Virus record (IMG/VR): IMGVR_UViG_3300030339_000017
DNA length: 64,000 bases
Direction: 5' to 3' (one strand)
Source of the DNA: an uncultured virus (IMG/VR IMGVR_UViG_3300030339_000017)
Lineage: Duplodnaviria > Heunggongvirae > Uroviricota > Caudoviricetes
Shown: in pieces, positions 17,163 to 40,622 of the stretch
Layout of the letters: the number at the start of each line of letters is the position of its first letter
Numbering within the stretch: position 1 is the stretch's first letter
Made by a program: the position numbers and the translations under genes
The notes under the pieces: generated by a model
Told to the model about the DNA's origin: nothing
Database searches by the model: none
The model's input: only the letters and a program-made list of their open reading frames with translations

Positions 17163-17173
17163 ATCAATTAAAA

Positions 17174-17416: not shown

Positions 17417-17427
17417 TCATAATCAAT

Positions 17428-20263: not shown

Positions 20264-20561
20264 CGAAGGTACATACATATGTTGGGTAAATAAAGTTCCA
20301 CATAGTGTTCCTATGTTACAAGGAGTAGACTTCATTAAATCTAAAGTAGTCGTATCTGGAATTCCACCAGAGATAATTTCAAAGGTTTTATATTTAACAC
20401 AAAACAATTAAGATGAAACGTAAAACATTTTATTACAAATTGCTATTATTTTGGTTCTTATCGATATTAGTAGCATTATTAGTTGGTGCACATAGAATTG
20501 GATTATTTGGAGACAAAGCAACGCCGAAAGTTTATTATGAACCAAAAACAAAAGAAGAAAG

Positions 20562-20873: not shown

Positions 20874-20891
20874 CAATTAAAAATTCAATCA

Positions 20892-21041
20892 ATGAAAAAA
20901 GTATTATTTTTATTATGCATCTCTATGATGCTATTTGCAGTATCTACTAATGTAGATGCAAGAGGACATAAATCCTCAGGTATTCATGCTTCAAAAGGAG
21001 CTGGACATCACAGTACAGGACGTACACATAAGTGTAAGTAA
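20892..21041 (+). CDS. Small secreted His/Gly/Lys-rich peptide (49 aa)
   Basis: Not in ORF track: MKKVLFLLCISMMLFAVSTNVDA-RGHKSSGIHASKGAGHHSTGRTHKCK. Confidence 0.6.
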   Translation: MKKVLFLLCISMMLFAVSTNVDARGHKSSGIHASKGAGHHSTGRTHKCK

Positions 21042-21094
21042 CAAACAAGTTAAGCTAGTTATTAAACAGCAACACTAAACTTCAAAATACGGAA

Positions 21095-22625: not shown

Positions 22626-22635
22626 CAAATAAAAT

Positions 22636-22709
22636 TGGAGGATCATCTAATTTGGTTAGGATGTAACTCTGATAAAGTTATAAACCCGGTTCGAGGCCGG
22701 GCCCTCCAA
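22636..22709 (+). tRNA. tRNA-Ile(GAT)
   Basis: TGGAGGA/CCCTCCA acceptor (one mismatch), TAACT-CTGATAA-AGTTA, CCCGG-TTCGAGG-CCGGG; no encoded CCA. Confidence 0.8.
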
Positions 22710-22967
22710 CAAATAAAAATAAGAGTGCGTATGGAATAACAATAATTCAGGACGCAGAGCGAAAAGCCGTAAGTCGGGAGCGATATCTCATGGGTACATA
22801 TCTGAAAAATACACTCTTATTCTCTCAAAAAAATCAAGACTATGCGTATATGTCAGCCTAGAACAAGGTCGCACTTATTCGGAAGTTAATAGTAGAATGT
22901 GTTCAAATCTATTATAAACATAGAATGAAAAGATTTGTCTTGATTTTCACTTTTAAATTATAAATAT

Positions 22968-23150
22968 ATGGCAAAGAAATTAGAACAAATTAAAAGTATT
23001 ATACAATATGCAAAGAATTGTGTAAATAAAGGAAAAGAAATATATCCTTTAATCTATTATTGCGAATACAAAGAAGCTGGATGCCATTCAACTTCACATT
23101 GTCCATATTACAATATAAAATACAATAAACCAAAAAATGTCGCTACTTAA
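22968..23150 (+). CDS. Small Cys-rich hypothetical protein
   Basis: 60 aa ORF. Confidence 0.45.
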   Translation: MAKKLEQIKSIIQYAKNCVNKGKEIYPLIYYCEYKEAGCHSTSHCPYYNIKYNKPKNVAT

Positions 23151-23222
23151 TAGGATGATAGCCCTATTGAGGCAATGGAAACCAGCAATGGGTTGAAGGG
23201 TTCGAATCCCAAAAGCGGCGCA
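23138..23222 (+). ncRNA. tRNA-like element, non-canonical
   Basis: Terminal stem tgtcgct/agcggcg, GGG-TTCGAAT-CCC T-arm, 9-bp hairpin cttaatagg/cctattgag; no standard anticodon arm. Confidence 0.5.
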
Positions 23223-23459
23223 AACAAAACTCAGTCGTAAGGGATATTACGAATACCTCTAGAAGCAGATATAGGGAAGCTTCTTTCAAAAAGATATAAA
23301 CATTTAATAATCAATATAAAATGAGTAAAACTTTAAGATTAAGAACGAAAGAATATCAGGGTGTTCCTGAATCAGATGTAAAATCATTACGGAAAAATGG
23401 TGCAATTCGCAAGCAAACAAAGATGACACCATATCAACCAAATAAAGAAAGGATTTGAT

Positions 23460-23834
23460 ATGGAATGGACAAAAGAGGCATTAAATAGAACGGCCATCCA
23501 AATAAAAAATATGGCCCATGGAAAAAGAATTCTTAAATTTTACAAATCGTATGGATTTGATACAAATGGATTCTTATCTTCAATTCCAAGTGTAAAAAAC
23601 CGATATTATTGTGTTGCTTACGGAAAAGTATTATATGGAACAAACCCAATAGGATTTGAAATTATCAAACTCCCTACAAAACCTCGTCGTAAATTTCCAC
23701 GAGAAATGATGATATCTAATGACAAAGAAAACTGGCAATCTTTCCCAGTAGAAGGAAAGTTCAAAAGAAAATTCCTAGTATACGTAGGATGGGGAGAATA
23801 CAAAGCATGGGAATATGCAAAAGAAATTGATTAG
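23460..23834 (+). CDS. Hypothetical phage protein
   Basis: 124 aa; FPREMMISND...WEYAKEI. Confidence 0.65.
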   Translation: MEWTKEALNRTAIQIKNMAHGKRILKFYKSYGFDTNGFLSSIPSVKNRYYCVAYGKVLYGTNPIGFEIIKLPTKPRRKFPREMMISNDKENWQSFPVEGKFKRKFLVYVGWGEYKAWEYAKEID

Positions 23835-23976
23835 TTCTCGCCAGGATTAATCAAAAGGTGGAACTGTTTGGTCTTACCATGCCAAATAGCCCTGGGGTAT
23901 CTAGAATCGTGATTAGTCGTGAAATAGGTACCCCTTTATCAGAATTTAATTTATTAATCAATAATAATTTACAAAA

Positions 23977-24510
23977 ATGAGAAAAACAATAAATAATGAA
24001 TTAATTAGGAAATTTAATCCTTGCTACGATCCAAAAGAGATAATAAAAAACGAAAAAGAATACTTAAAAATATCAAAATGGATTTCTAAGTATAGAGCAA
24101 AAGTCAAAAAACCAAATGAAATTATTTGGCTATTATGTAGAGGAGAATTTATGTCAGATAAAGATATGAGATTATTTGCCGTATGGTGCGCAAGAGAAGC
24201 AATTAAATCTCAAAAATTAGTAGATGAAAGAAGTTTGAACGCAATAGATATTGCAGAAAAATTTGCAAATGGAGAAGCCTCAGTAGAAAATTTATCAGCA
24301 GCAAGGTCAGCAGCAAGGTCAGCAGCATGGTCAGCAAGGTCAGCAGCAGGTGCAGCAGCAGAGGCAGCAGCATGTGCAGCAGCATGTGCAGCAGCATGTG
24401 CAGCAGCAAGTGCAGCAGCATGTGCAGCAGCATGTGCAGCAGCATGTGCAGCAGCAAGTGCAGCAGCAATTGAAAAACAAATAGATAAATTGATAACATA
24501 TTTTTATTAA
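23977..24510 (+). CDS. Phage protein with Ala-rich tetrapeptide repeats
   Basis: RLFAVWCAR...AIDIAEKFANGEAS then AARS/AAAC repeats. Confidence 0.75.
   Translation: MRKTINNELIRKFNPCYDPKEIIKNEKEYLKISKWISKYRAKVKKPNEIIWLLCRGEFMSDKDMRLFAVWCAREAIKSQKLVDERSLNAIDIAEKFANGEASVENLSAARSAARSAAWSARSAAGAAAEAAACAAACAAACAAASAAACAAACAAACAAASAAAIEKQIDKLITYFY
24296..24468 (+). repeat. 12-bp coding tandem repeat (gcagcagcatgt / tcagcagcaagg)
   Basis: About 14 units encoding AAAC/SAAR. Confidence 0.9.
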
Positions 24511-24535
24511 ACTTCAATTAAAACTTATTATCAAA

Positions 24536-25027
24536 ATGAATGATGTAGAAAAAGAGATTTGTCTTGAGTTGATAACTCATGCAAATAACAAAACAGAAGT
24601 AAAAAATGTAATGAATGAAACATTCAAAGCATTAAACAAAAAAGAATTGAATGTATTTATAAATGAAAGTTGGAAAAAAAGAAAACTGACAAGTAAGATA
24701 TCAATGTCTAATCTAGAATATAGAGAGAAAAGAGATTTATTGCAATCGCTACTTATTAAAAAAGCGTTTGGAGAAATTAAGCATATTTATGTAACAATAA
24801 ACAAGTGCTTAAGCAAAGATACTCCATTCGATATGTATAAGTCAATGATTGGAACTGGTAATCTTTATGTTCAAAGGAGGGAATTACAAAGAGGATCTGA
24901 AGTAGAGTTATTGAGATTCGATGAAAATGGAATCAAAATTCTAGTTGAAGATCTAAATTGGAAAGGATATGAATTCTATTTCTTAGTGTACGATATTAAT
25001 TGTCGTAATTACATAAGAATAGAATAA
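24536..25027 (+). CDS. Hypothetical protein
   Basis: 163 aa ORF. Confidence 0.65.
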   Translation: MNDVEKEICLELITHANNKTEVKNVMNETFKALNKKELNVFINESWKKRKLTSKISMSNLEYREKRDLLQSLLIKKAFGEIKHIYVTINKCLSKDTPFDMYKSMIGTGNLYVQRRELQRGSEVELLRFDENGIKILVEDLNWKGYEFYFLVYDINCRNYIRIE

Positions 25028-25030
25028 AGA

Positions 25031-25097
25031 AGTACGGCCCGCTAGGTCGTTTGATTCGTCAGGAAGACCGGGCTAGCATATGCCCGCACCTCCACCA
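25031..25097 (+). ncRNA. ssrA: Permuted tmRNA, acceptor piece
   Basis: GAA-GAC, T-arm CGGGC/GCCCG, then CACCTCC-A-CCA; pairs with GGGGGTG at 25203 giving G3:U70. Confidence 0.8.
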
Positions 25098-25100
25098 AAA

Positions 25101-25189
25101 CTATCATGTAATACGTAATGGCAAAATCGATTATGTCATCCATAGCAATATGGTTGTATCGTTGCGGGTTTGAGTCCCGCCATGGTAGC
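25101..25189 (+). ncRNA. tRNA-like element in the tmRNA intervening segment
   Basis: 8-bp CTATCATG/CATGGTAG stem, T-arm GCGGG-TTTGAGT-CCCGC, central arm ending in ccata-GCAA-tatgg; no clear anticodon. Confidence 0.65.
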
Positions 25190-25202
25190 ATTAAATTAAT
25201 AC

Positions 25203-25357
25203 GGGGGTGACCAGCATTGATTCGGACAAGATGATAACGAATAGGACTGCACAATGTCTATAACAGGCAATAAAACAATCCAAATCAACAACTACGTAGG
25301 CCTTGTAGCCTAATAGCCTAGAATGTACCTATCAGGCACGTGAGCAAATGCCGCACG
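25203..25357 (+). ncRNA. ssrA: Permuted tmRNA, coding piece; tag (A)GNKTIQINNYVGLVA
   Basis: 5' GGGGGTGACCAGCATTGA; ATAACA-GGC resume context at 25266; TAA TAG stops from 25311; terminal pseudoknot ggca/tgcc plus cgtg/cacg. Confidence 0.8.
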
Positions 25358-25367
25358 TTATATTCAA

Positions 25368-26102
25368 TTGTTACCTGATAGGGTTTTATTATTAATCAAT
25401 AGTAATATGGGAAAAGAACCAAGAGAATTTATTAAAAACCTAGAAATAGGAAAGACTTATATACTAGTTTGGTTTGATTTCATATTTATTGGAATATTGA
25501 AAGATAAAACCTGGAGAAATGAGTCCTATGAAGTGCTAGTTTTCGAAAGTGAACAGCAATACATATCAAATAGAAATGAAGTATCAAAAATGCTTCATAA
25601 AGAAGGAGGTAAAACTCAATTATATTGCACTAATTCTATTATATTCGAAAATAATATAATAGATGGAAAGTACTATGATTGGTTTATGTCAAAAATGAAG
25701 TCAGTAAATATCAGTAAAGTTAATGGCAAAAATACTATAGTCAATACAGGAATAGCAAAAAGTATGATTATAAAGGATTTATCAAAGATTTTACAGAGAA
25801 GAGAACTGTCTTTATTTGAAGATATATTAAATAGTAAAGGCGTTATACTAGTCCAAAACTATCAAAAAAAATACAGAGACATCGTTTCGTCTCAAGAAGA
25901 CCAAATGCCATTTAATGTAGAATTTCCAATTAAAAAATGCGAAATGTATCCAGAATTAGATGCAGAAGTAGAATTAACCATCAATGGACAAACAATGTCT
26001 TCATCAATGAAATATGCTCATGAGTTTTTTAACGAATGGAAAGGACATATTAATGCTGGATTAGTAATTTTTAAAATGAAAAAATTATGCCAAAAAAAAT
26101 AA
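25368..26102 (+). CDS. Hypothetical protein
   Basis: ORF; real start probably at MGKEPR. Confidence 0.65.
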   Translation: MLPDRVLLLINSNMGKEPREFIKNLEIGKTYILVWFDFIFIGILKDKTWRNESYEVLVFESEQQYISNRNEVSKMLHKEGGKTQLYCTNSIIFENNIIDGKYYDWFMSKMKSVNISKVNGKNTIVNTGIAKSMIIKDLSKILQRRELSLFEDILNSKGVILVQNYQKKYRDIVSSQEDQMPFNVEFPIKKCEMYPELDAEVELTINGQTMSSSMKYAHEFFNEWKGHINAGLVIFKMKKLCQKK

Positions 26103-26204
26103 AAAAAACAATAAGCTCCGAAACTGCAATATTAGATGATAAAAGTTATTTAGTATTTCATAATTGGAAAAAAGAAGCCAAATTGAAATGGAGGTTCTGT
26201 AAAA

Positions 26205-26729
26205 TTGATTGACATAGGATTTATAGGTGATCCTCATTTTGGACATGAGGCAATAGCAAATATTCGTGGCTTTACTGATATTGATAAATACAATCAAGAA
26301 GTAATCTATCGAATTAATTCGGTATTACATAAACGGTCATTACTTTATTTAATGGGAGATATTACAATGGAAAATTCAAAGTGGTATCATTTATTAGATG
26401 AAATAAAAGCAAGAATTGTAGTTATTGGAGGAAATCACGACTTAAGAAAAGATTTTCCAGAACTAATGAAACATGTAGAAGCCGTAATAGGGACTCTAAA
26501 ATATCATGGAGCTATTTTTACGCATATACCAATTCATACTCAGGAAGTAAACAGATTTTTATTTAATGCTCATGCTCATACGCACGAAGAATTAATAAAA
26601 AGATGGGCTTATGAGGCTGGTGGATATACGGCAAGGGAAGAAATAGATAAAAGATATACATGTCTTAGTTGGGATAGACTCGAGGGCATACCTTGGTCTT
26701 GGGAACAAATACTAAATAGTAGAAAATAA
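26205..26729 (+). CDS. Calcineurin-like metallophosphoesterase
   Basis: GDPHFGH, MGD, GNHD, THIP, HAHTH. Confidence 0.9.
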   Translation: MIDIGFIGDPHFGHEAIANIRGFTDIDKYNQEVIYRINSVLHKRSLLYLMGDITMENSKWYHLLDEIKARIVVIGGNHDLRKDFPELMKHVEAVIGTLKYHGAIFTHIPIHTQEVNRFLFNAHAHTHEELIKRWAYEAGGYTAREEIDKRYTCLSWDRLEGIPWSWEQILNSRK

Positions 26730-26745
26730 TTTAAAATCATATCAA

Positions 26746-27000
26746 ATGAATGAAATCAAAGTAAAAGAGATTTACAAGATAAAGGCGTTAGTAGAAAGGC
26801 TATTAGCTATTCCTGACAAAAAGATTGTAAGAACCAAGAAAGTAAAAAAGTTGGTTAAATTAAGATCCGGTAAAACGATATTGCGAATTCAAAAAAAGCA
26901 ATATACAGTGTTACAGGCACTGGGGAAAAAGCAAAATCAGCTTTTAGAAAGAAAGCAAGAACAATTGAAACAGTTGAAAATTGAATTAAAAATCTCGTAA
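26746..27000 (+). CDS. Basic hypothetical protein
   Basis: 84 aa, Lys-rich. Confidence 0.6.
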   Translation: MNEIKVKEIYKIKALVERLLAIPDKKIVRTKKVKKLVKLRSGKTILRIQKKQYTVLQALGKKQNQLLERKQEQLKQLKIELKIS

Positions 27001-27014
27001 AAACCACTATCAAA

Positions 27015-27140
27015 ATGAGCAAAACATTGAAGCAAAAAAGAATCTTGAAAATGAAAAAATCTTTGAGAGCTTGGGTTAGAGCCGGAAAACTAGCTATAGC
27101 AAGAACAAAGGATCGCACCGGAGAAGTAAAACAAAATTAA
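27015..27140 (+). CDS. Small basic protein (41 aa)
   Basis: MSKTLKQKRILKMKKSLRAWVRAGKLAIARTKDRTGEVKQN; TATCAAAATG start context. Confidence 0.55.
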   Translation: MSKTLKQKRILKMKKSLRAWVRAGKLAIARTKDRTGEVKQN

Positions 27141-27154
27141 ATTCAATTATCAAA

Positions 27155-27403
27155 ATGAGCAAAGTAAAATGTAAACGCGCAATTAGAAGAGTTGCAAACA
27201 GATCAAAAGTAATTGAACTTATTGAAGTTGGATTACCATTTGCCAGTAAAAAATCAATTACAAAAGGAGCGAATCCTTCTCAAGATGATAAAGACATGGT
27301 AAAATTACTGAAATCGGAAGGAAAATCCGTTACAGAAGCATGGAAGATAGTTCGTACGTCGAACTACAAAATCAAAAAAGAGTTGAAAAAGAAAGCGGCC
27401 TAA
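27155..27403 (+). CDS. Basic hypothetical protein
   Basis: 82 aa, TTATCAAAATG start. Confidence 0.65.
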   Translation: MSKVKCKRAIRRVANRSKVIELIEVGLPFASKKSITKGANPSQDDKDMVKLLKSEGKSVTEAWKIVRTSNYKIKKELKKKAA

Positions 27404-27444
27404 AACGCATTTTAAAGCCCGCTAGAGCATTTAATCTAGCAACT

Positions 27445-27518
27445 GGACCGATAATTCAACTGAATAGAATCGTGCCCTTCTATGGCGCTTGTTGGGGGTT
27501 TGAGTCCCTCTCGGTTCA
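27445..27518 (+). tRNA. tRNA-Arg(TCT)
   Basis: GGACCGA/TCGGTTC, ATTC/GAAT D-stem, GTGCC-CTTCTAT-GGCGC, GGGGG-TTTGAGT-CCCTC. Confidence 0.88.
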
Positions 27519-27533
27519 CTAAATTAATTTAAT

Positions 27534-28001
27534 ATGAAAATATCATTCGATTTTGATGGTACACTTTCAAGGAGAGACGTACAAGAGTATGCAAAAGAAC
27601 TTATATTGTTAGGAATGGAAATATATGTAGTTACAAGCAGATATCAATATTTAAATAGAGAAGATGGATTGTCAGTAGATAATTCAGATCTATGGGAAAT
27701 AGTAAATGAACTCGGTATCAAACCTAAAAACCTGGTATTTACAGAAATGAAATGGAAATCAGAATTCTTTAAAGATAATAATGAATTTGCATTTCATTTA
27801 GATGATTATTATTCAGAATTAATAAGAATACAAAAAGCATCAAAAGTTCCAGCTATTTCTGTAAATGGAAATTGGAAGAAAAAATGCAATAAGGCAATTA
27901 AAAATTATAAATCAAAACCAAATAAAGTAATTAATTATGAGGAAAAGATTAAAAACGGCTTTCACATTTATGTGGATAAAAGAAAGGTCGTTTCAGAATA
28001 G
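27534..28001 (+). CDS. HAD-superfamily hydrolase
   Basis: ISFDFDGTL, VVTSR, K, HLDD. Confidence 0.8.
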   Translation: MKISFDFDGTLSRRDVQEYAKELILLGMEIYVVTSRYQYLNREDGLSVDNSDLWEIVNELGIKPKNLVFTEMKWKSEFFKDNNEFAFHLDDYYSELIRIQKASKVPAISVNGNWKKKCNKAIKNYKSKPNKVINYEEKIKNGFHIYVDKRKVVSE

Positions 28002-28161
28002 CCGTATACTGAAATAGAAGGGAGTATAGTAAGAAATTAACTACATTCCTACAAGATAAAACAAAAGTGTCACCTGCAGGCGAAGTTGTTACGGAGTCGG
28101 GGTCCCCTAAAAGACATAGATTAATCACTCGGGGTTGTGATTTTTCATTAAACTTAAAATT

Positions 28162-28707
28162 ATGAACACAAAAGAGGCAATAGAACTTGCTAAGGTGGGT
28201 TCAGAAAAAGCATTTACATACCTATATAATACGTATCATAAAGTAATTTATAGTAATATTTATTATATAGTAAAAAACAAAGATGTAGCTGATGATTTAT
28301 TATCAGAGACATTTTTAAAAGCGTTCAAGAATATAGATAAATTCACAAAAGATATTTCATTTGAAATGTGGTTAAAAACCATAGCTAATAATCATAGTAT
28401 TGACTTTATTCGTAGTATAAATAAAGAACAAAACAATGTTTATGTAGATGATGATTTACTAAAAGAATTTATCTATACAGATAATAGCAATCCTGAAAAG
28501 GAATTGATCAAGAAAGAAGAATATGGTAGGTTTGAACGAGGATTAGTAAGCCTTAGCAAGAAACAAGAAGAGGTATTAAGATGTAGATATAATGACAATA
28601 TGTCCTATAAGGAAATAGCTGAAAAATTAAATCTAAGTATTGGTACAATTAAACATTATATTCATCGTTACAAAAATAAATTAATTACAAATATTAACAA
28701 CCAGTAA
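28162..28707 (+). CDS. ECF-type RNA polymerase sigma factor
   Basis: Region 2 (AF..LY...ADDLLSETFLKAF...FEMWLKTIANNHSIDFIR) and region 4 (LSKKQEEVL...MSYKEIAEKLNLSIGTIK). Confidence 0.93.
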   Translation: MNTKEAIELAKVGSEKAFTYLYNTYHKVIYSNIYYIVKNKDVADDLLSETFLKAFKNIDKFTKDISFEMWLKTIANNHSIDFIRSINKEQNNVYVDDDLLKEFIYTDNSNPEKELIKKEEYGRFERGLVSLSKKQEEVLRCRYNDNMSYKEIAEKLNLSIGTIKHYIHRYKNKLITNINNQ

Positions 28708-28718
28708 AACAAAACAAA

Positions 28719-29123
28719 ATGAAAACAAGACATCAAATCTTAGTTATTGGAGCGAAATTCGTTTCTTTGACTCTTTTTGCAGCTTTATTGGGGGTAGGAT
28801 CTGGAAATTTTGTAAGAAATAATCAGAAATTATTAGCTGAAGCACCAACTGTAGTTGTAGTACAGAATGAAACAGCTAAAGATCTTTCTTACATACAATT
28901 AAAAGATTCAAAATGTGTTTTGTCAAGCATCAAAACGTATACACAAAAAGAAGTAGTCATTTCTACTTTTGTAACTCCACGAGAGATTGTGATGAATGCG
29001 ATAGAAGCCAGACGGCAAGACCAACGGAAAATTTCGTTGAACAACATTTATACTCCCAGAGTAACAAACACTTATTTCCCATACAAAGCAAGGGGCGACT
29101 CAATACATGTAAATACGAGTTAA
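28719..29123 (+). CDS. Membrane-anchored hypothetical protein
   Basis: N-terminal TM, directly after sigma gene. Confidence 0.6.
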   Translation: MKTRHQILVIGAKFVSLTLFAALLGVGSGNFVRNNQKLLAEAPTVVVVQNETAKDLSYIQLKDSKCVLSSIKTYTQKEVVISTFVTPREIVMNAIEARRQDQRKISLNNIYTPRVTNTYFPYKARGDSIHVNTS

Positions 29124-29211
29124 CTGACATAGAAGCAGTGAAACCCAGAGTACAAAAAAGAGTTAAATTATTTTCAAACAATTATCAAAATTAAAAAAGG
29201 AGGTAAATAAA

Positions 29212-30213
29212 ATGGATACGGAAAAAGCAGGACGGGGAGACCGGCCTGGAATTCAAAACCTACGCATGGATGTGAAAGACATGCTAAACTATCGTAAGGT
29301 TTTAGAGAGTAAAAGAACTGAAGCATTTGATCGTGGAGATACTGAAAAGTATACAAGATTGAGTAAACAATGCGACGTCATGGATATGGTATTCGATACC
29401 ATTTATATCGCGACCATTGAAGACCAATTGCCTACGTTTAAGGCTTTATTAGGAAGCGATTTCGATATTAGCTCTTTAAAATTAGCGCTACCTGAATATA
29501 AGTCTGCAGAAATTGTGGATGACACACAGGTAAAAATAGAGTTTGTTGAAGAAAAACCAGTAGCAGAAGAGGTTAAGACAGGAAAGCCAAAAGCAAAAGC
29601 TAAGGAAATCCCTGAACCACAGAACTATATGGATCAGATCGAACGACTTATGTCAAAAAATATTGCAGATAATATTTTACCTGCAATTAAATTGTATTTA
29701 GAAAATACTGGAAAGGAATTACTACCAAGTGATGCCTATAAAGAAATCAAAGAACTACTACCGAATTGTCGTATACCACGCGTATATGATGCTTCATTAG
29801 CCTATGATTTCTTACACAATGGTCCATTGTCAGTATTTTGGTTCGTAAAGAAGCATATGCCAGAATTATCTGAAACCGAAGTTGGAAGATTGGTTGAAAT
29901 GGCTGTTTTAAATACAATCGTAAATGAGGAAACTCCATTTACAAAAGCAAAAGAATTAGAAGATTTCTTAAAATCTGGCTTTAGTCGGAAGCAAATTAAA
30001 CTCTGGAAAGAAGATCCCAAAAAGGATGAAGTGGTTAAACTTTATGTGCAGAAAGTCTCTGCAGAGACCCTTAGTACTTTGAAGATGTCTCAAGAAGAGT
30101 TTATTGATAAGCAAATCGGAAGAATTATTGCTGCAATGAGTCCAAGTCTACGGGCCGGGATAGAAAAGAAAAATGGACGTAAGCCATATGTCGAAAATGG
30201 CTATCCTTGTTAA
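29212..30213 (+). CDS. Hypothetical protein
   Basis: 333 aa, preceded by AAGGAGGT. Confidence 0.75.
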   Translation: MDTEKAGRGDRPGIQNLRMDVKDMLNYRKVLESKRTEAFDRGDTEKYTRLSKQCDVMDMVFDTIYIATIEDQLPTFKALLGSDFDISSLKLALPEYKSAEIVDDTQVKIEFVEEKPVAEEVKTGKPKAKAKEIPEPQNYMDQIERLMSKNIADNILPAIKLYLENTGKELLPSDAYKEIKELLPNCRIPRVYDASLAYDFLHNGPLSVFWFVKKHMPELSETEVGRLVEMAVLNTIVNEETPFTKAKELEDFLKSGFSRKQIKLWKEDPKKDEVVKLYVQKVSAETLSTLKMSQEEFIDKQIGRIIAAMSPSLRAGIEKKNGRKPYVENGYPC

Positions 30214-30256
30214 ATTAGGATTTCGACAGTGTAATCAATACATAAAAATAATCAAA

Positions 30257-30661
30257 ATGAAATCATGGATTCTTGGAATTCTATGGTTTTTAACAGTTTC
30301 AATATCAGCATATGCATACAGTGTTAATAACACTAATGTAGTTAAAGAAAATAATTTTGTAGCAGAAAATTCTACCAAAATTGAAGTTCCAAGAATTAAA
30401 TTCTATAGCGATGATGGTTTTGCAAACTGTTTAGACCGGAATAGCCAACAGCAAATAAAACAGATAGTAAATCTGCCGGAAATATGTGTAAAACTACATA
30501 TACGGAAAAGTAAAACTTTACTTAATAAAGATAAAAGTGTAGAATCAGTAGATAGAAATGAATTCGAAGAGCTAGAGACTCTTGATGTTCCGACAGTATA
30601 TCTACAAATAGATCCTATACAAATATCAAATACAGATTTAAATAATTATCTAAATACATAA
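30257..30661 (+). CDS. Secreted or membrane hypothetical protein
   Basis: Likely start MKSWILGILWFL... inside track ORF 30173-30661. Confidence 0.6.
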   Translation: MKSWILGILWFLTVSISAYAYSVNNTNVVKENNFVAENSTKIEVPRIKFYSDDGFANCLDRNSQQQIKQIVNLPEICVKLHIRKSKTLLNKDKSVESVDRNEFEELETLDVPTVYLQIDPIQISNTDLNNYLNT

Positions 30662-30664
30662 ATC

Positions 30665-31021
30665 ATGACTCCTCAAATTCAGGTAATTCGCATGAAGAGT
30701 GCGAGATTAAAAAGGCTTTATGAAGCTAGAATAAAAGCGGCAGAACTCCGATATGTACAATTGTATGGAGATGAATTTCTAACAGATCCGCTAAAAGAGT
30801 TAATAAGTCGTCTTGATTCAAAAATCAAGGTGATAGAGACTGAAATACAAGGAGAAATAAAGACAATCACTGGCTATAATGATAACATACATGTAAAAGT
30901 TCACTACATAAGCCAGGCAGAAATTAAAGCCGGTATATTAAATCTATCATTGGCTGACGATGGTAAAGATTTTCTAGACCTAAACACAGGCGAAATTGTG
31001 TTATATCAATTGATCAGTTAA
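30665..31021 (+). CDS. Hypothetical protein
   Basis: 118 aa ORF. Confidence 0.65.
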   Translation: MTPQIQVIRMKSARLKRLYEARIKAAELRYVQLYGDEFLTDPLKELISRLDSKIKVIETEIQGEIKTITGYNDNIHVKVHYISQAEIKAGILNLSLADDGKDFLDLNTGEIVLYQLIS

Positions 31022-31024
31022 AAT

Positions 31025-32310
31025 CTGGCACCGCAGATATGCGGTTTCAATATATATTCGAATCGAGTTATTATCGAATTAAAATAAGCAGTTAGATAAC
31101 AAAAATGAGATTACCATACTATTTTAGTAGAGATATGTAATTAAAATGCGGCGGGGGGCTGTCGCTATATAAAACGTCCAAAAATAATATGAAGGTTTAC
31201 GTAGTTTCCCCACCTTTAAACAACGCGATAAAGGAAACAGTGTACGCAATAGCATAGTCATATTGCCCGCAGGTTTAAGCTTCTTAGCGAATCAAGAAGT
31301 AGGTGTCTAGGTTTTGAAACCGGCCCAGGCGAAAGCCGATTAAATACGAATTATTAGTACAGTAATAATTAACGGCAATCACGAATCCAAATATTAACTT
31401 TGATTGTGAATGAGTATGCTTCTCTAAAAGCAAGTCGCTAGTGGTGGCGAAGAACATGAACCACAAACAATTCTTTAGAGTACCTTAGAAAAGTACGCGG
31501 CCTTTAATAAAGTAAGACCAAAAGAATAGTAATTAGCAAGAGATGTGAGCCGCAACTCACATAAGCAGCACATATTACAATAAATCAGCCTTCAAGTTAT
31601 GGTTAGTTCATAAATTTCCTATAGGAATAAGGAAGATAATATAGATTAAGATCGTTCATGTTGGATTCGATCACAAAAGAAAAACATGAGCAGGGAGCTT
31701 TGCAGAAGCGAACCGGCTATATAACCAACAGAACTGCAAAAACCCGCGAATCAGGGAATATGATATGCGTGAGCAGAAGCAAATATAGGCTCTTTAATAT
31801 ATTTCAGCCCGACAGAAATATAGATCGTCCTTAAGTGGGACTATACACTTTATTAGTCTATAAATACTACTTATGGACAGCATTTTTAGTAGGTATCTCC
31901 CTATCTCGGAGAATATTGAATAGCGAAAAACATTATGTCTGGTAGCAATGCAAGTAGAAAACATAGAACTACTATAAAAGCTTATGTCTACATTTCAAAG
32001 GATGACACGATCCAGAAGAAATGAAATACGTCCTGAAGTTTAGAATCCTTGGAAATACACGATAAAAACCAAGAAGAACACATGAAAGCAAGCCGGTCCA
32101 AACGGTACACAAACTATTAGTATTCCAATAGGAATAAGGGTAGCCCTTGCCTGATGTTAATAAAAGTAGTCACTAAATAGGGATTAAATGCAAAGTTAAG
32201 AAGTTCTTTAAAAACTTCATGTGCACAATATTCAAGGATTGTCTTAGGAATTTTAGAACACCAATAATTAAAAAAGTTAGGAGCTAATACAAGATTCGCA
32301 CACAATGGTT
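31025..32310 (+). ncRNA. Candidate giant structured ncRNA B (about 0.9-1.3 kb)
   Basis: No plus-strand ORF; dense hairpins; 31046-53 complementary to 31913-20. Confidence 0.55.
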
Positions 32311-33061
32311 TTTATTATATTTTTTCAACAAAAAGTATAAATTAATAAATAACATTTTTATATATTGCAGACAATTGTAGATAAATAAGACTATGAATCT
32401 TATTTAAAAAAGTATATTAAAAATGATAAATTTTGGAGACTCCCATGTTTATAAATCAATTTATTAATATAACATATTAAGAGCGATTTAAACCACTTTT
32501 ATGCAGTTATAGTAACATATATCAGTAAGACGTATAAACTGTCTTAAATCGCATGCAAATGGCCTTATTTGGCCTAAATACAGTTTGAATAGCTCTGTCC
32601 ACATTGAAGAATGCCTATTTCCAAAGCATAGATAAATGTATAGGTTAACTTGAGTAGGTGAAGATCCTACATACTATAGTAAATAGTATAACTAATTATT
32701 TTTATGAAATATAAAAATCAAATAAACACGATTTATGTAAGAACTCGGTAGAGAAAGCTTATATATTAATACAAGAATTACGTATCGTACTATAAAGTTG
32801 ACATTGCGGCTCAGATAGATAACCGAAAGGGTTCAAAACAGGCTGAGAGTTAAGGACGTAATTTATATTTTATATTTTCAGAAACTATCCAATCAAATTC
32901 TTTAAATGTAGTTGGCAGTTATGGAAGCCCATGCGAGTGACAACAGATTTTAGCAATATTATCAAAGAGGGTGCATCATTCCAACAAATTGGATTTTCCA
33001 ATACACAAACAAATTAATTATCAAAATAAGTAAATAATCAATATTAAAAAAGGAGGTCAAA

Positions 33062-33535
33062 ATGAATACAAAGAACACAGCAGCGCGGAAATTATTTATT
33101 GGCGCAGATATTTTCACGTTGAAACAAGTAGATGTAGATGACAATCATGTCCGGAAAGACAAAGAAAATCGTATCGAAGTAAAAGCGACCCTAGTTACAC
33201 CAAAAGTAATTCATGTAAATGAAGTAAAAGGTGTAAAAGGTATGGGTGGACAAGATATCATTATTGTTAATGGTGGAGAAAACAAAATCTCTATCCCAGC
33301 GAATTATCAATTCGTTGAAGATGCAAAAAACTTCGACATTGAGAAAAGCAATGAATCTCGCCCGCAATTTTTCGCAGACCATAAATCAGCCGTAGAAATT
33401 GCAAATGCCCATAATACAGGCGAATTAATTCGCTTGCAAATTATCAAAGAAGATTTGGAAAGCCAAATCAAGGCATTGAAAGATGTCATTAATGCAAATG
33501 TAGCCCAATCCGGTCTATATAGCAACGAAGACTAA
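33062..33535 (+). CDS. Hypothetical protein
   Basis: 157 aa, preceded by AAGGAGGT. Confidence 0.75.
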   Translation: MNTKNTAARKLFIGADIFTLKQVDVDDNHVRKDKENRIEVKATLVTPKVIHVNEVKGVKGMGGQDIIIVNGGENKISIPANYQFVEDAKNFDIEKSNESRPQFFADHKSAVEIANAHNTGELIRLQIIKEDLESQIKALKDVINANVAQSGLYSNED

Positions 33536-33557
33536 TCATTTTAATTCATAATCAATT

Positions 33558-34076
33558 ATGAATAAGGTTAGTTTAAATGAATATGATAAGCACAGACTAT
33601 CTGAGTTAATCATATTCTTACTGGACCCCTCTGGAAAATTTGCAATAAATTCGAAAGGGGAAGTTTATTTCGGTAGAGTAAATTATTTAACGCTAATTTT
33701 TAGCCGAGGAAGTGATGATCATCATGATTTCTACGAAATAATTAAAATGCTGATTAATAAAATCATTGAAATAAAAGGGGAGAGCCCTTTTGTTAGGCAA
33801 TTATGTGACAGCGCTATTGAGTCGTTTCTTGAAACGAATGATAGAGCTACCGTAATAAAATCAATCTATACTGCATATACTTTAACAGAGGAACCGCAAC
33901 AGGGAAGTCAAGAACAAGAGATGCATTTTCCAGAAATAAAGATTGAGACGCAGGAGCAAAGATTACCGCTATTTGGTAGTCATACTATCTTTGAACAACA
34001 AAATAGAACACCAGACTTAGCCCGTGATTTCGCAGCATTATTAAATCAGGCAAGAGTGGTTTTCATTAAAGAATAA
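33558..34076 (+). CDS. Hypothetical protein
   Basis: 172 aa ORF. Confidence 0.7.
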   Translation: MNKVSLNEYDKHRLSELIIFLLDPSGKFAINSKGEVYFGRVNYLTLIFSRGSDDHHDFYEIIKMLINKIIEIKGESPFVRQLCDSAIESFLETNDRATVIKSIYTAYTLTEEPQQGSQEQEMHFPEIKIETQEQRLPLFGSHTIFEQQNRTPDLARDFAALLNQARVVFIKE

Positions 34077-34358
34077 TGCATTAAAAATAATATAATAGCC
34101 ACAGGTAACACTTTAAAATCAAGATTTATGTTTATGGGAGTAACATCATAAAAGTAAATATAAAGAATGAATAGCTATACAAAATATATTACAATAATGT
34201 AGCAATAACATATGCATTTGGTTAGTTTTCTTAACCGAAATCAATACACCAAATGCATATGCAAATTGGACTAAGGTAGGGATATTCTTAGCCCAACACA
34301 GGAAGACTTATATACTTTTAGATTAAGTAGTATTAATCAATAAAAATATATAATCAAT

Positions 34359-34823
34359 ATGAAAAACAATAAAAAAACATTGACTCCAGAGGAGTTAATA
34401 ACAGAACGTGTAGCATGCATTTTAGATATTAAACAATTATGGACTATTATTATCAATAATAATATTATTCCAAATGGCATGCAACAAAAATTTAATTTAA
34501 ATGCTGTTTACGAGCAAATTAAAAAAGCTGAAATTAAATTAGTAGAAATTAAAACAGCGATTCAACTTGCTAATTTAGGATTTACTAATCTTACTGAGAT
34601 TCCTGCAAACAATATTCAATCCTCTATTTATCTTCTTCAACAATTGAAAGAGCGAGTAGTAAAATTGAATGCCATTTCTACTAAAAAAGAAGATGGAGAA
34701 TCTGTAGTTCTTACTCGAAAATTCATTAGTAAAGAAATTGAACTATTGAATAATGAAATCAGTAAAATTGAAGAAAAATTAATCGTCTTCAATTCGAAAG
34801 TAAACTTTGAAATAGCAGCATAA
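34359..34823 (+). CDS. Coiled-coil hypothetical protein
   Basis: 154 aa ORF. Confidence 0.7.
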   Translation: MKNNKKTLTPEELITERVACILDIKQLWTIIINNNIIPNGMQQKFNLNAVYEQIKKAEIKLVEIKTAIQLANLGFTNLTEIPANNIQSSIYLLQQLKERVVKLNAISTKKEDGESVVLTRKFISKEIELLNNEISKIEEKLIVFNSKVNFEIAA

Positions 34824-34911
34824 AAAAACAACAAAGAAGTAACGGTGAATATGCCTTCAGAAAGCATAGGTGAGTTCAATCCTCATAACTTTAACAAAAA
34901 GAGAGACAACC

Positions 34912-35187
34912 ATGAAAACGGAACAACTCAAAAAAATTGAAAAATTATTAAAGGATCAAAAGTCTGGTTTTTATAAGTTTATCAAAAAAAATAAAGGACT
35001 AAAGCACCTTATGAGGGACTATATAAAAGGAGATTTAGAGTATTTATATGATTTTTATATCTCTAAAAAAGACCCAGAATGGAATAGAAGAATGGCTACT
35101 AGTATGACCACATTCGATATGGATTGGAACCCATTAGTAGACAAAAAACTTTTAAATAGATTGAATAATGAGACCAATAATAAATAG
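34912..35187 (+). CDS. Hypothetical protein
   Basis: ATG at 34912 within track ORF 34870-35187. Confidence 0.55.
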   Translation: MKTEQLKKIEKLLKDQKSGFYKFIKKNKGLKHLMRDYIKGDLEYLYDFYISKKDPEWNRRMATSMTTFDMDWNPLVDKKLLNRLNNETNNK

Positions 35188-36313: not shown

Positions 36314-36880
36314 ATGCTGATAGAAATAGATTTGGAAGAGGCGAGACGTCTCAAAATCAACATGAATCAGTTCGTATTAATAAGTTTATTAATGTCAAAT
36401 AGCGATATCAAATCGCTGCTGGATGTTATCCCCATCAGCGAAGATGACGTAAATAAACTTATATCAAAAGATATATTAACAAAAGAATCAGTTTTTGATT
36501 CGAAAGATTTTTCAAAATTAATCATAAATGACGACTTTAAAAATAAAGTAAAAGTCAAGGATTTCTTTACTGAATTCTTTGATGCTTACCCAGCTTCAGT
36601 AACACGTACTGATGGACTTAAAGACTATTTACGGGGAGATATATCTCGTTGTAGAAAGTATTATACTAAGGAAGTTGGAAATATTCGAAGCAAACATGAC
36701 CACATGATGGAGTGTTTAAAATTCGAAGTAGAAGCAAGAAAAAGAGCAGGATCATTAGGATACATGAAAAGAATGTCCAAATGGCTACTTTCAGAAGAAT
36801 GGCTTCTTTATGATGAATTTATGAAAGATAAGAAGATACAAAAACAAGCAGGAACAATATATGGAACAGATATCGAGTAA
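36314..36880 (+). CDS. Putative replisome organizer / helicase loader
   Basis: FFTEFFDAYP...YMKRMSKWL..EEW; overlaps DnaB start. Confidence 0.6.
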   Translation: MLIEIDLEEARRLKINMNQFVLISLLMSNSDIKSLLDVIPISEDDVNKLISKDILTKESVFDSKDFSKLIINDDFKNKVKVKDFFTEFFDAYPASVTRTDGLKDYLRGDISRCRKYYTKEVGNIRSKHDHMMECLKFEVEARKRAGSLGYMKRMSKWLLSEEWLLYDEFMKDKKIQKQAGTIYGTDIE

Positions 36881-38118
36881 GAAAGTACTTGGATATAGGC
36901 ACATATCAACTGCTACAAATGAAATTGTTAATTATATTCAAGATAGACGTAAAAAACGAGTAAAATCACTTGCTACACGATGGCCTAAGTTTAATAGACT
37001 AGCCATGGGTGGTATAGAGCCAAATGTTATATATACTATAGCAGGAGTCTCTGGAAGTGGTAAATCTTCGTTTGTTAATACATTAGAGACTGATTTAATA
37101 GATCTAAATCCAGATGAAGACATTGTCATACTTAGTTTCAGTTTTGAAATGCTAAGCTCAAGACAGGTCGGAAGAAAACTATCATATAAGCTAAAAAAGA
37201 CTACTTCTGAATTATACAGTGCCTCCGAAAAGGGACTTGTTACAGAAGAAGAATATGCAGATGTAGAAAAGGAGGCGAAATCCATAATGAACTATCCAGT
37301 TTATTATGTCGATACTCCTGGGAACGTGCAAGAAATAGCAAATACAATAAAATTCTTTCAAGATACATTTGCAAAAAACAAATGGCTTGTAGTTATCATA
37401 GATCATACCTTATTGATTAAGGGAAGTGGAACTGGTAATGAAAGAGAAATCATAGTGGATTTAGAAAAAGAACTAATAGGAGCAAAGAAAGTTGGTAAAA
37501 CTTCTATTATACAAATATCACAAATGAATAGAAATATTGAATCTCCCGAGAGACTGAATAATAATTCATTGCATTATCCTCAGCGCAGCGATTTGTCATC
37601 AAGCGATGCAGTATTTCAAGGATCTGACTATGTAATAGTAATACATAGACCAGAAGTTCTTGGTTTGCTATCTTATGGATATAATAATCTTCCTGTAAAG
37701 GATTGCATATACCTTCATTTTCTAAATAAATGGAACTTTGCTGCGTAATCAGCATCGAAAATTTGGTGAATTGCTGGAAAATCCTGAAGAGGACAATCAG
37801 CAGCCAAGACTTATTTTAAATGGATAAGTAAGGTTCAACGACTAGATATTGAAACTGTTAAATACAGAATATATATATATCCACGAGCGCCAAACACCCT
37901 ACATGGGTGATGATATAGTCTGAACTGCAAATATAACAAAAGAAATTGCAGATATATAGGATAAAGAGCCTATATGATAACAAATTTGAAAAAATAGAGA
38001 AGGCGATATAAAGATCCTCAAGTTTATAAATGATTTAAAATATAATAATCTAAAAGAACCAGAAGAAGAGGATGAAAAGACAATAGGCCAACAATCATTA
38101 GAATTTGAAAAAAAATAA
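36861..38118 (+). CDS. dnaB: DnaB-like replicative helicase, spliced (36861-37723 + 37989-38118, 330 aa)
   Basis: GVSGSGKS, IIDH, SQMNR, SDL; splicing restores YLHFL-KNREG. Confidence 0.9.
37724..37988 (+). mobile_element. Group I intron without ORF (265 nt) in dnaB
   Basis: Exon ends in U with P1 (ttct/ggaa); core aattgctggaaa, aatcagcag, ttcaacgactaga, gatatagtc; terminal G. Confidence 0.9.
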
Positions 38119-38122
38119 AATT

Positions 38123-38656
38123 ATGGATAACAAAAATAAATTTGCAGTTAAACTGCCATCATTTCTTAACGACATTAATTTATTGTATAAAACTAGTTTA
38201 GTAGATACAATTATTGATAAGTATCCACATTTAACTATGGCCGGTATTGATACCCCATACGAAACATCACGTGGAAATAAGATTAATGGTGTTGAAAATG
38301 CAAAACCAAACGATTATATTACCTTTGGAACCTCTCGTACACATGATGTGAATTGGATGAGCAAAGGAGAAGAAGATACATTTAATTATTTGAATCGTAC
38401 TGGAGTTCCTGTATATGATCTGCAAAAAGATTATAGTAAGGTAATGTACAATTTGGATAAATTTGCGACCGCAAACAAACCAAAAGAAACTTGTAATTGT
38501 GATTATTGCAATTATAATAAAGTACAGAAATTTGATGCTTTTACAAAGGTTGGATATACTATTATTCCAACACCAAAAGTGACTCCAACATATTGCTATG
38601 GATATTTTAATCCATATTATACAGTAAGAGTGACTACAATTAGCATTAAATTTTAA
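38123..38656 (+). CDS. Hypothetical protein
   Basis: ATG at 38123 within track ORF 38105-38656. Confidence 0.65.
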   Translation: MDNKNKFAVKLPSFLNDINLLYKTSLVDTIIDKYPHLTMAGIDTPYETSRGNKINGVENAKPNDYITFGTSRTHDVNWMSKGEEDTFNYLNRTGVPVYDLQKDYSKVMYNLDKFATANKPKETCNCDYCNYNKVQKFDAFTKVGYTIIPTPKVTPTYCYGYFNPYYTVRVTTISIKF

Positions 38657-38747: not shown

Positions 38748-40622
38748 ATGATAACATTACCGATTATTAAAAGCTCGCCAAAAGCTTCTAATCCTCGATT
38801 CTTAGTTTATTTCGGTAAACCTAAATCTGGAAAGACAACTCTAGCATCTACTTTAGAAAATAATTTAATTATTGATTTAGAAGATGGTACTGATTTCTTA
38901 TCAGCATTAGTATTAAAAGCAACAAATATAACAGAATTATCTGAAATAGCAGCAGCTATAAAACAAGCAAATACACAGGCAGGAAAATTCGTTTATAACT
39001 ATATAACTATAGATAATGGAACGAAATTAGAAGAAATGTCTATGTCTCTAGCATTAAAATTATACAGAGAAACTCCACAGGGGAAGAACTATACTGAAGA
39101 TGTTAGAAAATTGCCAAACGGTAAAGACCAGCGCCGTTGTAAAACCAACCTAATTGCGGGAATACTCAATGTTTATATGTACTACTAATTAATAGTGATA
39201 TATAATTAGGACCTATTGTAATGGATAGGGTATAGTAAAAACTATATAAATAAGAGGGAATCCGCAGCGAAGTCACTTACGTAAATATATTACAACAAGA
39301 CAAACAAAATCTTGATAGATACGTTTACATAAGTGATATGCTCATCGACTATCGAAACCACGCAGTAGCGGAAGGGAGTAGAGTAGAGTGTATCTAGTAA
39401 ATACATTCGAAACGGTTGGATTATGAAATTTGAAAAAAGTAAAGAAATAGAAGAAATATCATGTGTATATGGAATCTATAATATAAAAACAAAAAAATGG
39501 TATATTGGATCTACCATAAATCTAAAGAATAGAATAAACAGACATTTATTTGAATTAAAAAAAGAAAAACACCACTCAAATAAATTACAAAGATCATTTA
39601 TTCTCTATGGTCCTAAGAATTTTGAATTATTTATATTGAAAAATATAGAAAAAGATAAAGTCAAGGACTTAAGCAAAGAAGAAGATTTATATATAAAGAA
39701 ATTAGATTCAGTAGAAAATGGATATAACATATCACTAAATACCAACAACCCACATATTGTGAAATTATCAAAAATACAAATTGATAAAGCCGCAAATTCA
39801 CATAAAATATCAATTATAGCATTAGATTTTAATGGCAATTTTATAAAAAGATATTCAAGTATAACAGAGGCGTCAAAAGAATTAAATACTAGTTCTTCTA
39901 ACATAAGTCAATGTTGCAAAAATAATGGGAATATAACATGTAAAGGGTTTTTATTTTTATATGAAAAAGATTACAATGTAAATAAAAAATACAAAAGGGA
40001 ACGTTATGAAATGAATAAATCTCATAAAAATAAAATAATTTATAAAGCACAAACTCAAAAAAAAGCAAGAAAAATAAATTGTATAGATAATGACTTAAAT
40101 TTCTTATCAATATCAGAATTTGAAAATTATTTTAAAATGAGAAAAGACTCATTAAGAGAAAAAATTAAAATAACGAAAAATGAAATGTATTTTACATGGA
40201 ATTCTATGAATTTTATATTATCAAAAAGTAATAGTAAGATATAGTCAGTTCAGGCTGGATGGCTTTTCGTAAGAGAAGCTTTCTTTAAGATTATAGATAT
40301 ATTTAAAACACTATCACCAACATTGATATTAATATGTCACGTCAAAGACGCTATGATTAATAAAGATGGAAAAGAGTTAAGCGAAATGTCTATAGATTTG
40401 TCAGGTAAGACTGCAAGATTAGTTGCTGCAGATGCAGATGCAATTGGTTTTGTATATAGAAAAAAGAATCAAACGATTATGAATTTTAACGGTGGAGGAG
40501 ACTTTATCGTAGAAGCAAGGCAAGAACATTTAAGAGGAAAAGAGATAGTTGTTGCAGAATCTAATGAAGATAATGTGATTACTACTTATTGGGAAAGAAT
40601 TTTCATACCAAGTAATGAATAA
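38748..40622 (+). CDS. Sak4-like AAA ATPase, spliced (38748-39122 + 40254-40622, 247 aa)
   Basis: FGKPKSGKTT, IDLEDG, ITID; splicing gives LPNG-AGWLFVRE...ILICH...DLSGK...DAIG. Confidence 0.85.
39302..39327 (+). promoter_or_regulatory. Intron-internal ECF-type promoter
   Basis: AAACaaaatcttgatagataCGTTTA, about 100 nt upstream of endonuclease ATG. Confidence 0.6.
39423..40244 (+). CDS. GIY-YIG homing endonuclease with NUMOD1-like region
   Basis: CVYGIYN...WYIGST.NL..R...H; GYN; YSSITEASKEL..SSSNISQCC. Confidence 0.92.
   Translation: MKFEKSKEIEEISCVYGIYNIKTKKWYIGSTINLKNRINRHLFELKKEKHHSNKLQRSFILYGPKNFELFILKNIEKDKVKDLSKEEDLYIKKLDSVENGYNISLNTNNPHIVKLSKIQIDKAANSHKISIIALDFNGNFIKRYSSITEASKELNTSSSNISQCCKNNGNITCKGFLFLYEKDYNVNKKYKRERYEMNKSHKNKIIYKAQTQKKARKINCIDNDLNFLSISEFENYFKMRKDSLREKIKITKNEMYFTWNSMNFILSKSNSKI

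Follow-up and report, generated by a model that had tools for sequence, protein, structure and literature searches.

A conserved gap without reading frames in a crAss-like phage genome as the probable source of a large structured RNA

The window analyzed here is a stretch of 64,000 nucleotides (nt) from an uncultured virus of the Caudoviricetes (IMG/VR record IMGVR_UViG_3300030339_000017). Inside the block of + strand genes that occupies 15.1–47.2 kilobases (kb) of the window, two neighbouring genes are separated by a long gap that lacks an open reading frame (ORF):

30665–31021, + strand: upstream neighbour, gene of a protein of 118 amino acids (aa)
31022–33061, + strand: the whole ORF-free gap (RNA B locus), 2040 nt, between the 118-aa and 157-aa genes
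33062–33535, + strand: downstream neighbour, 157-aa gene

The + strand of this gap very probably encodes a functional structured RNA, hereafter RNA B. An earlier note, made from the sequence alone, had described positions 31025–32310 as an ORF-free region with a series of hairpins and had proposed a giant RNA there, distinct from another candidate of the window, RNA A. The absence of frames was confirmed: no ORF of at least 60 aa spans 31025–32310 under translation table 11, under table 4, or with TAG read as glutamine. The proposed extent was too short, the real gap being that listed above.

The gap was compared among relatives from IMG/VR and metagenome contigs, one of which was found through the 333-aa neighbour and more with exact patterns derived from conserved blocks. 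Of the four loci from the exact 18-mer scan, two were chance matches (L008 and L009), and of the 15 loci from the metagenome pattern scan, eight were chance matches that lacked every other motif and matched the profile only at the pattern itself. After removal of duplicates, the comparison set comprised eight distinct sequences (the window, L040, L043, L038, L039, L045, L037, and L047). No match was found in GenBank phages, either by BLASTN with the gap or by TBLASTN with the 157-aa and 333-aa neighbours. In all eight sequences, an ORF-free gap of 1731–2212 nt lies between homologs of the same two genes. The flanking proteins are 40–54% identical among the relatives, and the gaps share blocks at 70–93% nucleotide identity despite this divergence. 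Neutral DNA should not align at such a level of protein identity; the blocks are therefore conserved beyond what the flanks allow.

The conserved blocks carry no sign of coding. No frame opens in 31022–33061 with TAG read as glutamine or TGA as tryptophan, and read-through of TAA yields nothing beyond 198 codons, these being at non-homologous places among the relatives. The longest stop-to-stop frame in any of the eight gaps is at most 98 aa, and such frames lie at non-homologous places and on varying strands. TBLASTX comparison among the gaps matched the same blocks in several frames and on both strands, with stop codons inside. Since there is no homologous frame and the TBLASTX matches are frame-inconsistent and contain stops, the gap can be neither a gene nor a pseudogene inherited from a common ancestor, and it encodes no small conserved peptide. 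The lack of a conserved reading frame is what is generally expected of a structured non-coding RNA. A decayed gene, which the earlier note had named as one finding that would speak against its proposal, was rejected on the same TBLASTX matches and because all eight divergent relatives keep the gap free of ORFs.

According to the conservation profile and the alignments, the gap is composed of five parts, namely, a 5' domain, a middle, a 3' domain, a tail, and a poorly conserved stretch, and the order of the domains is fixed in all eight sequences. The features are as follows:

31030–31045, + strand: hairpin ACCGCA-loop-TGCGGT, directly after the upstream stop codon
~31105–31340, + strand: conserved 5' domain, about 235 nt, from the conservation profile and alignment
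31148–31179, + strand: candidate pseudoknot 1, with S1 at 31148–31152/31161–31165 and S2 at 31156–31159/31176–31179
31190–31238, + strand: pseudoknot 2, with H-A (31190–31196/31212–31218) crossing H-B (31204–31209/31233–31238)
31240–31255, + strand: hairpin H-C
31274–31300, + strand: TTTAAGCTT followed by hairpin H-D (31280–31285/31294–31299)
31310–31337, + strand: hairpin H-E (31310–31313/31318–31321) and GNRA hairpin GGC-GAAA-GCC (31328–31337)
31340–31880, + strand: variable middle, differing greatly in length and content among the relatives (463–748 nt in the eight sequences)
~31890–32305, + strand: conserved 3' domain, about 420 nt, with 11 helices and 55 predicted pairs
32025–32190, + strand: best-conserved core, in which several helices meet at a junction and single strands are invariant
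32428–32450, + strand: conserved tail hairpin of 8 base pairs, 5 of them compensatory
~32484–32575, + strand: tail module, common to five of the eight sequences by eye, with a local fold of z = –2.48
32740–33040, + strand: poorly conserved stretch (column identity 0.12–0.32), with a window-specific insertion in the alignment

The structure of the 3' domain was predicted by RNAalifold on an unguided MAFFT alignment, and a pair was counted as compensatory when at least one sequence had changed on both sides with the pair kept. The alignment of homologs, which the earlier note had recommended as a check, yielded clear covariation: 33 of the 55 pairs show compensatory changes, compared with 6–13 in controls in which the partners were slid by 1–3 columns. 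In addition, 93.4% of the 424 cells are paired, versus 32.2–38.1% in the slid controls, and none of 500 shuffles reached any of five covariation measures. As the structure and the test share one alignment, the contrast with the slid controls is inflated; the 76 doubly changed cells found in this structure are beyond such a bias. A covarying hairpin (31893–31900/31908–31916) stands at the start of the domain. Compensatory changes above controls, the general mark of a structured non-coding RNA, were thus found in the 3' domain, and they were also found in H-A, H-B, and H-D of the 5' domain.

In the core of the 3' domain, covarying helices stand beside one helix without any variation and several invariant single strands (GAAGTTTAGAA, CAAGC.GGTCCAAAC.GTACACAAA, CCCTTGCCT, and GTCACTAAATAGG). 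Judged from the sequence comparison, covarying helices together with invariant single strands are the putative signature of a binding or active site. The covariance model of the core (R1) scores 105–172 bits for all eight members and finds nothing in the eight chance loci. What selection maintains in the gap is base pairing and the invariant single strands, not a reading frame. Apart from this, a hairpin module UCC-UUAAAU-GGAGAA was observed in the 5' domain and 3' core of L040, L043, L039, L045, L037, and L047; its copy in the 3' core is found in four of these relatives and covaries to UCG/CGA in two. Both copies are lost in the window.

A search for stems, all against all, on the MAFFT alignment yielded 52 candidates, most of them spurious, and was set aside for its noise. 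As for the 5' domain, several of its helices are misaligned by MAFFT, and for this reason they were scored by position-anchored and shift-tolerant tests with decoys. H-B is fully paired in all eight sequences with seven different helix sequences (40 of 40 cells; decoy maximum 37). H-A is paired in 39 of 40 cells (decoy maximum 34), with the variants AUGGU/GCCAU, GAGGU/GCCUC, and AAGGU/ACCUU. The strands of the two helices follow in the order A5' < B5' < A3' < B3'; H-A and H-B therefore form a predicted pseudoknot, which is well supported (pseudoknot 2). Further downstream, TTTAAGCTT is invariant in all eight sequences, and in H-D, which follows it, 47 of 48 cells are paired (decoy maximum 42) with the stems CUUCUU, CUUCGC, CUUCUC, and CUUUCA. 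The GGC/GCC stem of the GNRA hairpin is kept in seven of the eight sequences, even with a long loop insertion in L039.

Pseudoknot 1 is graded as likely, because the shift-tolerant decoy test did not separate S2 from decoys. In the raw MAFFT columns, S2 is paired in seven of eight rows as GGGC:GCCC, GGAC:GUCC, or GGGC:GUCC (an A-U/G-C exchange), and S1 is fully paired in four of eight, three further rows having one A-C. Upstream of the 5' domain, the hairpin behind the stop codon of the 118-aa gene is kept in five of seven rows, one of which reads ACCGTA/TACGGT, a compensatory change noted by eye; no run of T follows this hairpin, and it was not listed by the terminator scan.

In the middle of the gap, RNAalifold found no consensus pairs (31340–31880). 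A local helix at 31746–31753/31761–31768 has three compensatory pairs, yet 8 of its 55 cells are unpaired. The middle appears to consist of subfamily-specific modules.

Folding energies were compared with shuffles for ten 150-nt pieces of 31101–32600. The z scores were +0.49, –0.60, +1.06, –0.86, –0.48, –0.85, +0.04, +1.74, –1.43, and –2.48 (mean –0.34), and only the last piece, 32451–32600, stands out. Ten pieces of the flanking coding genes gave a mean z of –1.46. Since the fold of the single sequence is at the level of chance, the case for RNA B rests on comparison and not on visible hairpins, which the earlier note had used as its evidence.

All ten pairings picked out in that note are present in the sequence where it had placed them, and their fate among the relatives differs. 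Comparison supports CTTCTT/AAGAAG, which is H-D, as well as GGC-GAAA-GCC (seven of eight), GCGGC/GTCGC (four of eight fully paired and three more with one A-C), ACCGCA/TGCGGT (the hairpin behind the stop codon), and ATGTGAG/CTCACAT, a hairpin with changed stems in four of eight by eye. The AATTATT, GTTCATGTT, TTTGCAG, and ATATTTC hairpins found no support, as they lie in the variable middle. The long-range pairing TTCAATAT/ATATTGAA was rejected: its 3' arm shares positions with the covarying hairpin that opens the 3' domain. By our estimate, a long-range complement of 8 nt is expected by chance in 1.3 kb.

RNA B is assigned, with moderate to high confidence, to the + strand, on which all neighbouring genes also lie; this assignment draws on the excess of G-U pairs and on the GAAA tetraloops in the predicted structure. 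In the 3' domain structure, G-U and U-G cells number 53, and A-C and C-A cells 5. The domain holds positions that are G-U in eight of eight and in seven of eight sequences and that would be mismatches on the minus strand, and the GAAA tetraloops are correct on the + strand only.

The stretch or part of it was found in 24 sequencing runs, namely, 20 DNA runs labelled as peat metagenome and four RNA libraries with small shares of its words. The four RNA runs were compared over 15001–35000; it should be taken into account that they had been chosen by words of the RNA B stretch itself. Contigs from these runs match 31204–31354, 31235–31302, 31329–31569, 31468–31618, 31544–31694, and 31631–32032 with 1–3 mismatches. 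They form a continuous tile over 31204–32032 that reaches from the 5' domain through the middle into the first part of the 3' domain, at a depth of 2–5 that is similar to that of coding-gene pieces. The contigs are weak evidence: they indicate only that the stretch is continuous and present in RNA libraries. Positions 32343–35000 are uncovered by contigs in the four runs, and such a hole proves nothing.

In the same four metatranscriptome runs, the best-covered part of 15–35 kb is RNA A, the ORF-free stretch 20873–23460. It was not used to select the runs, and its contigs (21199–22311) have depths of 72, 19, 6, and 9, versus 2–6 elsewhere, so that RNA A looks like a truly abundant RNA. Its conserved blocks are present in two complete relatives (G002 and G003). 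According to ARAGORN, tRNA-Ile(gat) lies within the stretch at 22636–22710; the only tRNA listed by the Rfam scan at gathering score is that at 27445–27518. In two runs, 100 other letters stand in place of a 65-nt piece of RNA A (21886–21952), as would fit an exchangeable module. The view of the earlier note that RNA B is distinct from RNA A was upheld, since the gap profile finds no second copy in the window. Other stretches without an ORF of at least 100 aa are 16544–18206 and 13893–15099, the latter being the divergent region where the leftward and rightward gene blocks part.

The source of the window is a crAss-like phage. Its large terminase is 59–69% identical to those of uncultured crAss-like phages, e.g., cr118_1, and for its portal and terminase, matches to PHROG families reach E ≤ 1e-146. 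Related contigs are 91–97 kb long; two of them are rated 100% complete, one of these with terminal repeats. Searches in Pfam and PHROGs gave no trustworthy family match for the neighbours of the gap, the 118-aa and 157-aa genes included. A homolog search with the 157-aa protein found only the protein itself and one protein at 53% identity. Its gene is always adjacent to the gap, and its predicted structure is a small beta-barrel with a long helix (predicted local distance difference test score, pLDDT, 81). Comparison of this model with the PDB gave no match at E ≤ 0.001 (best E 0.5) and no lead to an RNA-binding partner or function.

A 28-nt gene-start motif (ATAATCAATATTAAAAAAGGAGG-like) precedes the 157-aa and 333-aa genes (~33033–33060 and ~29180–29207) with 89% identity. 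Ahead of the 157-aa gene, AATCAA within the TAATCAAT-like motif is invariant in all seven aligned rows; this motif may be a phage promoter or translation signal. Consensus scans for promoters and terminators gave no signal at the gap ends and no internal sites above shuffle expectation, and the Bacteroidota –7 motif TAnnTTTG was not enriched (94 matches versus 90 expected). A gene of a sigma-factor-like protein (28162–28707; PHROG 1740, E 1e-28) lies 2.3 kb upstream of RNA B, and its product could define the promoters of this gene block.

Downstream of the gap are the replication genes, with a helicase at 36861 and a primase at 41292. The DnaB-like helicase ORF (36861–37748) runs into a group I intron (RF00028, 37713–37951, 80 bits), ORF 38105–38656 is a possible second exon of this helicase, and a GIY-YIG-type homing endonuclease gene lies at 39423–40244. 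On the minus strand, two giant ORFs of 1865 aa and 3569 aa (47290–52887 and 53253–63962) are without a PHROG match at E ≤ 1e-5; in size and position they agree with the giant virion-packaged proteins of crAss-like phages, RNA polymerase included.

With a confidence moderately above even, the gap is best explained as the source of a large + strand non-coding RNA with architectural action, be it one gene or several closely packed modules. That one RNA spans both the 5' and 3' domains is about an even call, and the architectural or sequestering mechanism is tentative and suggested by analogy. The proposal of the earlier note, a second, distinct, large structured RNA, is borne out in that covariation is strong, the locus is not a decayed gene, and contigs from RNA libraries cover it. 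According to the main rival, which is possible but rather unlikely, the gap contains not one giant RNA but two to five distinct genes or processed modules of structured RNA in a row. It would account for the finding that about 125 columns are missing from the beginning of the 3' domain in L047 and pseudoknot 1 from L037, that the UCC/GGA hairpin is present in six of eight sequences and absent from the window and L038, that the tail module is confined to five of eight, that the middle has no consensus fold, and that no well-supported long-range helix connects the domains. However, RNA contigs cross the domain borders (31204–31354, 31329–31569, and 31631–32032), no promoter-like or terminator-like sites exceed shuffle expectation inside the gap, and the domain order is fixed in all eight sequences; GOLLD likewise joins a variable and a conserved part in one RNA. 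Several observations weigh against a single large RNA of the + strand, and they are best stated together. Between the 5' and 3' domains there is no helix with covariation behind it, the helices that might close the structure are weak, with 7 of 40 and 10 of 48 cells unpaired, and the middle 540 nt have no consensus structure. The window's own folding energies are no better than those of shuffles, so that RNA B does not stand out by thermodynamic stability. Whole-gap RNAalifold energies are equal on both strands (–145.6 versus –144.9), and for pairs predicted on both strands G-U and A-C counts are 31 versus 24; the tested structure had itself been derived for the + strand from the alignment used in the test, a bias towards that strand. 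Only eight sequences stand behind the structure. The gap ends carry no promoter or terminator signal, and the RNA contigs come from selected runs, carry no strand or end information, are of depth 2–5, and may include DNA carry-over.

A cis-acting element of the neighbouring messages is improbable, that is, a structured 5' untranslated region leading the 157-aa gene or its operon, or a 3' untranslated region stabilizing the upstream mRNA. The gap lies on the same strand as both neighbours with no terminator or promoter detected between them, the synteny of upstream gene, gap, and downstream gene is strict in all eight sequences, and a conserved hairpin stands right behind the upstream stop codon. 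Yet the best-conserved domains are 750–1950 nt upstream of the start codon, whereas the 300 nt next to the start codon of the 157-aa gene are the least conserved part of the gap. RNA contigs cover 31204–32032 and none covers 32343–35000, which, coming from four runs, is weak evidence. To our knowledge, two kilobases are far beyond the known leaders of bacteria and phages. Still less probable is an element acting as DNA (an origin of replication, a site for packaging, or an array of protein-binding sites), as might be suspected from a long non-coding stretch upstream of replication genes in which some blocks, such as helix 3 of the 3' domain, are invariant in sequence. Such an element would not be expected to keep 33 of 55 pairs by compensatory changes; the strand-asymmetric G-U excess, together with the GNRA loops and the pseudoknots, is what a folded single strand would show, and the turn of the GC (guanine-cytosine) skew is near 14 kb, away from the gap. 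Finally, a decayed gene, a gene in another code, or an intron is extremely improbable. Recoding and introns are known in crAss-like phages, according to the accessible text of PMC7886860, and a group I intron lies 5 kb away. However, all eight divergent lineages lack a frame, also with TAG as glutamine or TGA as tryptophan, and a group I or group II intron was rejected, as no model matched at E ≤ 10 and the flanking genes are complete (the upstream gene with its own stop, the downstream gene with its own start and ribosome-binding site) and separately conserved in all eight.

Under the preferred explanation of a large + strand RNA, RNA B would probably be made from an early or middle rightward transcription unit, in the manner of the early long non-coding RNAs (lncRNAs) of phage phi14:2, and would probably persist as a stable folded RNA. 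It would probably act through its architecture, antisense pairing and coding being unlikely, and the invariant 3' junction may serve to bind or sequester some factor of the host or the phage, or other RNA B copies, as GOLLD and ROOL do. A more specific version, which we regard as doubtful, is a single 1.2–1.7 kb transcript that has the 3' junction as its active site or assembly interface and works with RNA A. If true, this would be the largest structured non-ribosomal RNA known from a phage, with a new ribozyme activity or a higher-order RNA-only particle like the GOLLD and ROOL cages, and it would work alongside the more abundant and unrelated RNA A of the same phage. Large structured RNAs without a known job are rare, and new classes of them have opened fields of RNA biology (ribozymes, riboswitches, RNA cages). 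With eight diverged sequences, clear domain borders, one well-supported and one candidate pseudoknot, and an invariant junction, RNA B is ready for study in vitro.

The locus was compared with known RNA families and with published phage RNAs. The Rfam check proposed in the earlier note gave no family for RNA B: in Rfam 15, the whole window at gathering score contains only the group I intron described above and tRNA, and the segment 30800–33200 gives no match at E ≤ 10. Four relatives' loci searched at E ≤ 1 gave three chance-level hits (two miRNA models and STnc410; 21.6–26 bits), all below half of their gathering scores of 50–98 bits. By covariance model, RNA B is therefore not a member of GOLLD, ROOL, or any other Rfam 15 family. 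The literature search revealed no account of large structured RNAs in crAss-like phages apart from a remark on phi14:2; the words non-coding, noncoding, and intergenic are all absent from PMC7886860, and PMC12386605 uses "non-coding region" only for a retroelement template.

That remark concerns the Cellulophaga crAss-like phage phi14:2, in which, according to the accessible part of the report, two long intergenic regions (the g004-g005 and g005-g006 junctions) are transcribed rightward (Drobysheva et al., bioRxiv 10.1101/2020.03.07.982082). The same text describes these lncRNAs as early, above most genes in level, and persistent, with a function "to be determined". RNA B resembles them as a long ORF-free stretch of a crAss-like phage (in phi14:2, the unannotated stretch is 2905–4601) that lies in a rightward block upstream of replication genes on the strand of its neighbours. 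In contrast, there is no detectable homology and the flanking genes are unrelated: the nhmmer gap profile finds nothing in phi14:2 1–12000, and R1, which covers the 3' core only, finds nothing in the whole 100,418-nt phi14:2 record at E ≤ 1. The phi14:2 lncRNAs are highly transcribed, whereas the RNA B contigs are of depth 2–5 and lack strand or time course; no structure of the phi14:2 lncRNAs was found in the accessible literature. An unrelated, peat-associated crAss-like clade repeats the phi14:2 observation of long non-coding RNAs, which suggests that kilobases of structured RNA are a general trait of the very abundant order of crAss-like phages.

GOLLD and ROOL are described, in the accessible text of the source, as large ornate phage RNAs with pseudoknots that form RNA-only cages or multimers, GOLLD combining a variable and a conserved part in one RNA (bioRxiv 10.1101/2024.12.08.627333). 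Like GOLLD (RF01998), RNA B is phage-borne, very large, and heavily structured, with pseudoknots and with conserved and variable parts; its conserved span is longer, about 1.2 kb, compared with "many members exceeding 800 nt" in what could be consulted on GOLLD. Like ROOL (RF03087), which is carried by phages and prophages, has multiple pseudoknots, and is not known to have a protein partner, it is large and ornate. Unlike both, RNA B has no Rfam match. GOLLD and ROOL are often beside tRNA genes in phages and prophages, and RNA B, also in a phage, is not: the nearest tRNA (27445–27519) is 3.5 kb upstream, and the locus is near no tRNA island. RNA B is, in addition, about twice as long as the 659-nt ROOL example and belongs to other hosts and another phage group. 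RNA B is thus best regarded as a new family within a known kind of large structured phage RNAs, of which GOLLD and ROOL are the closest.

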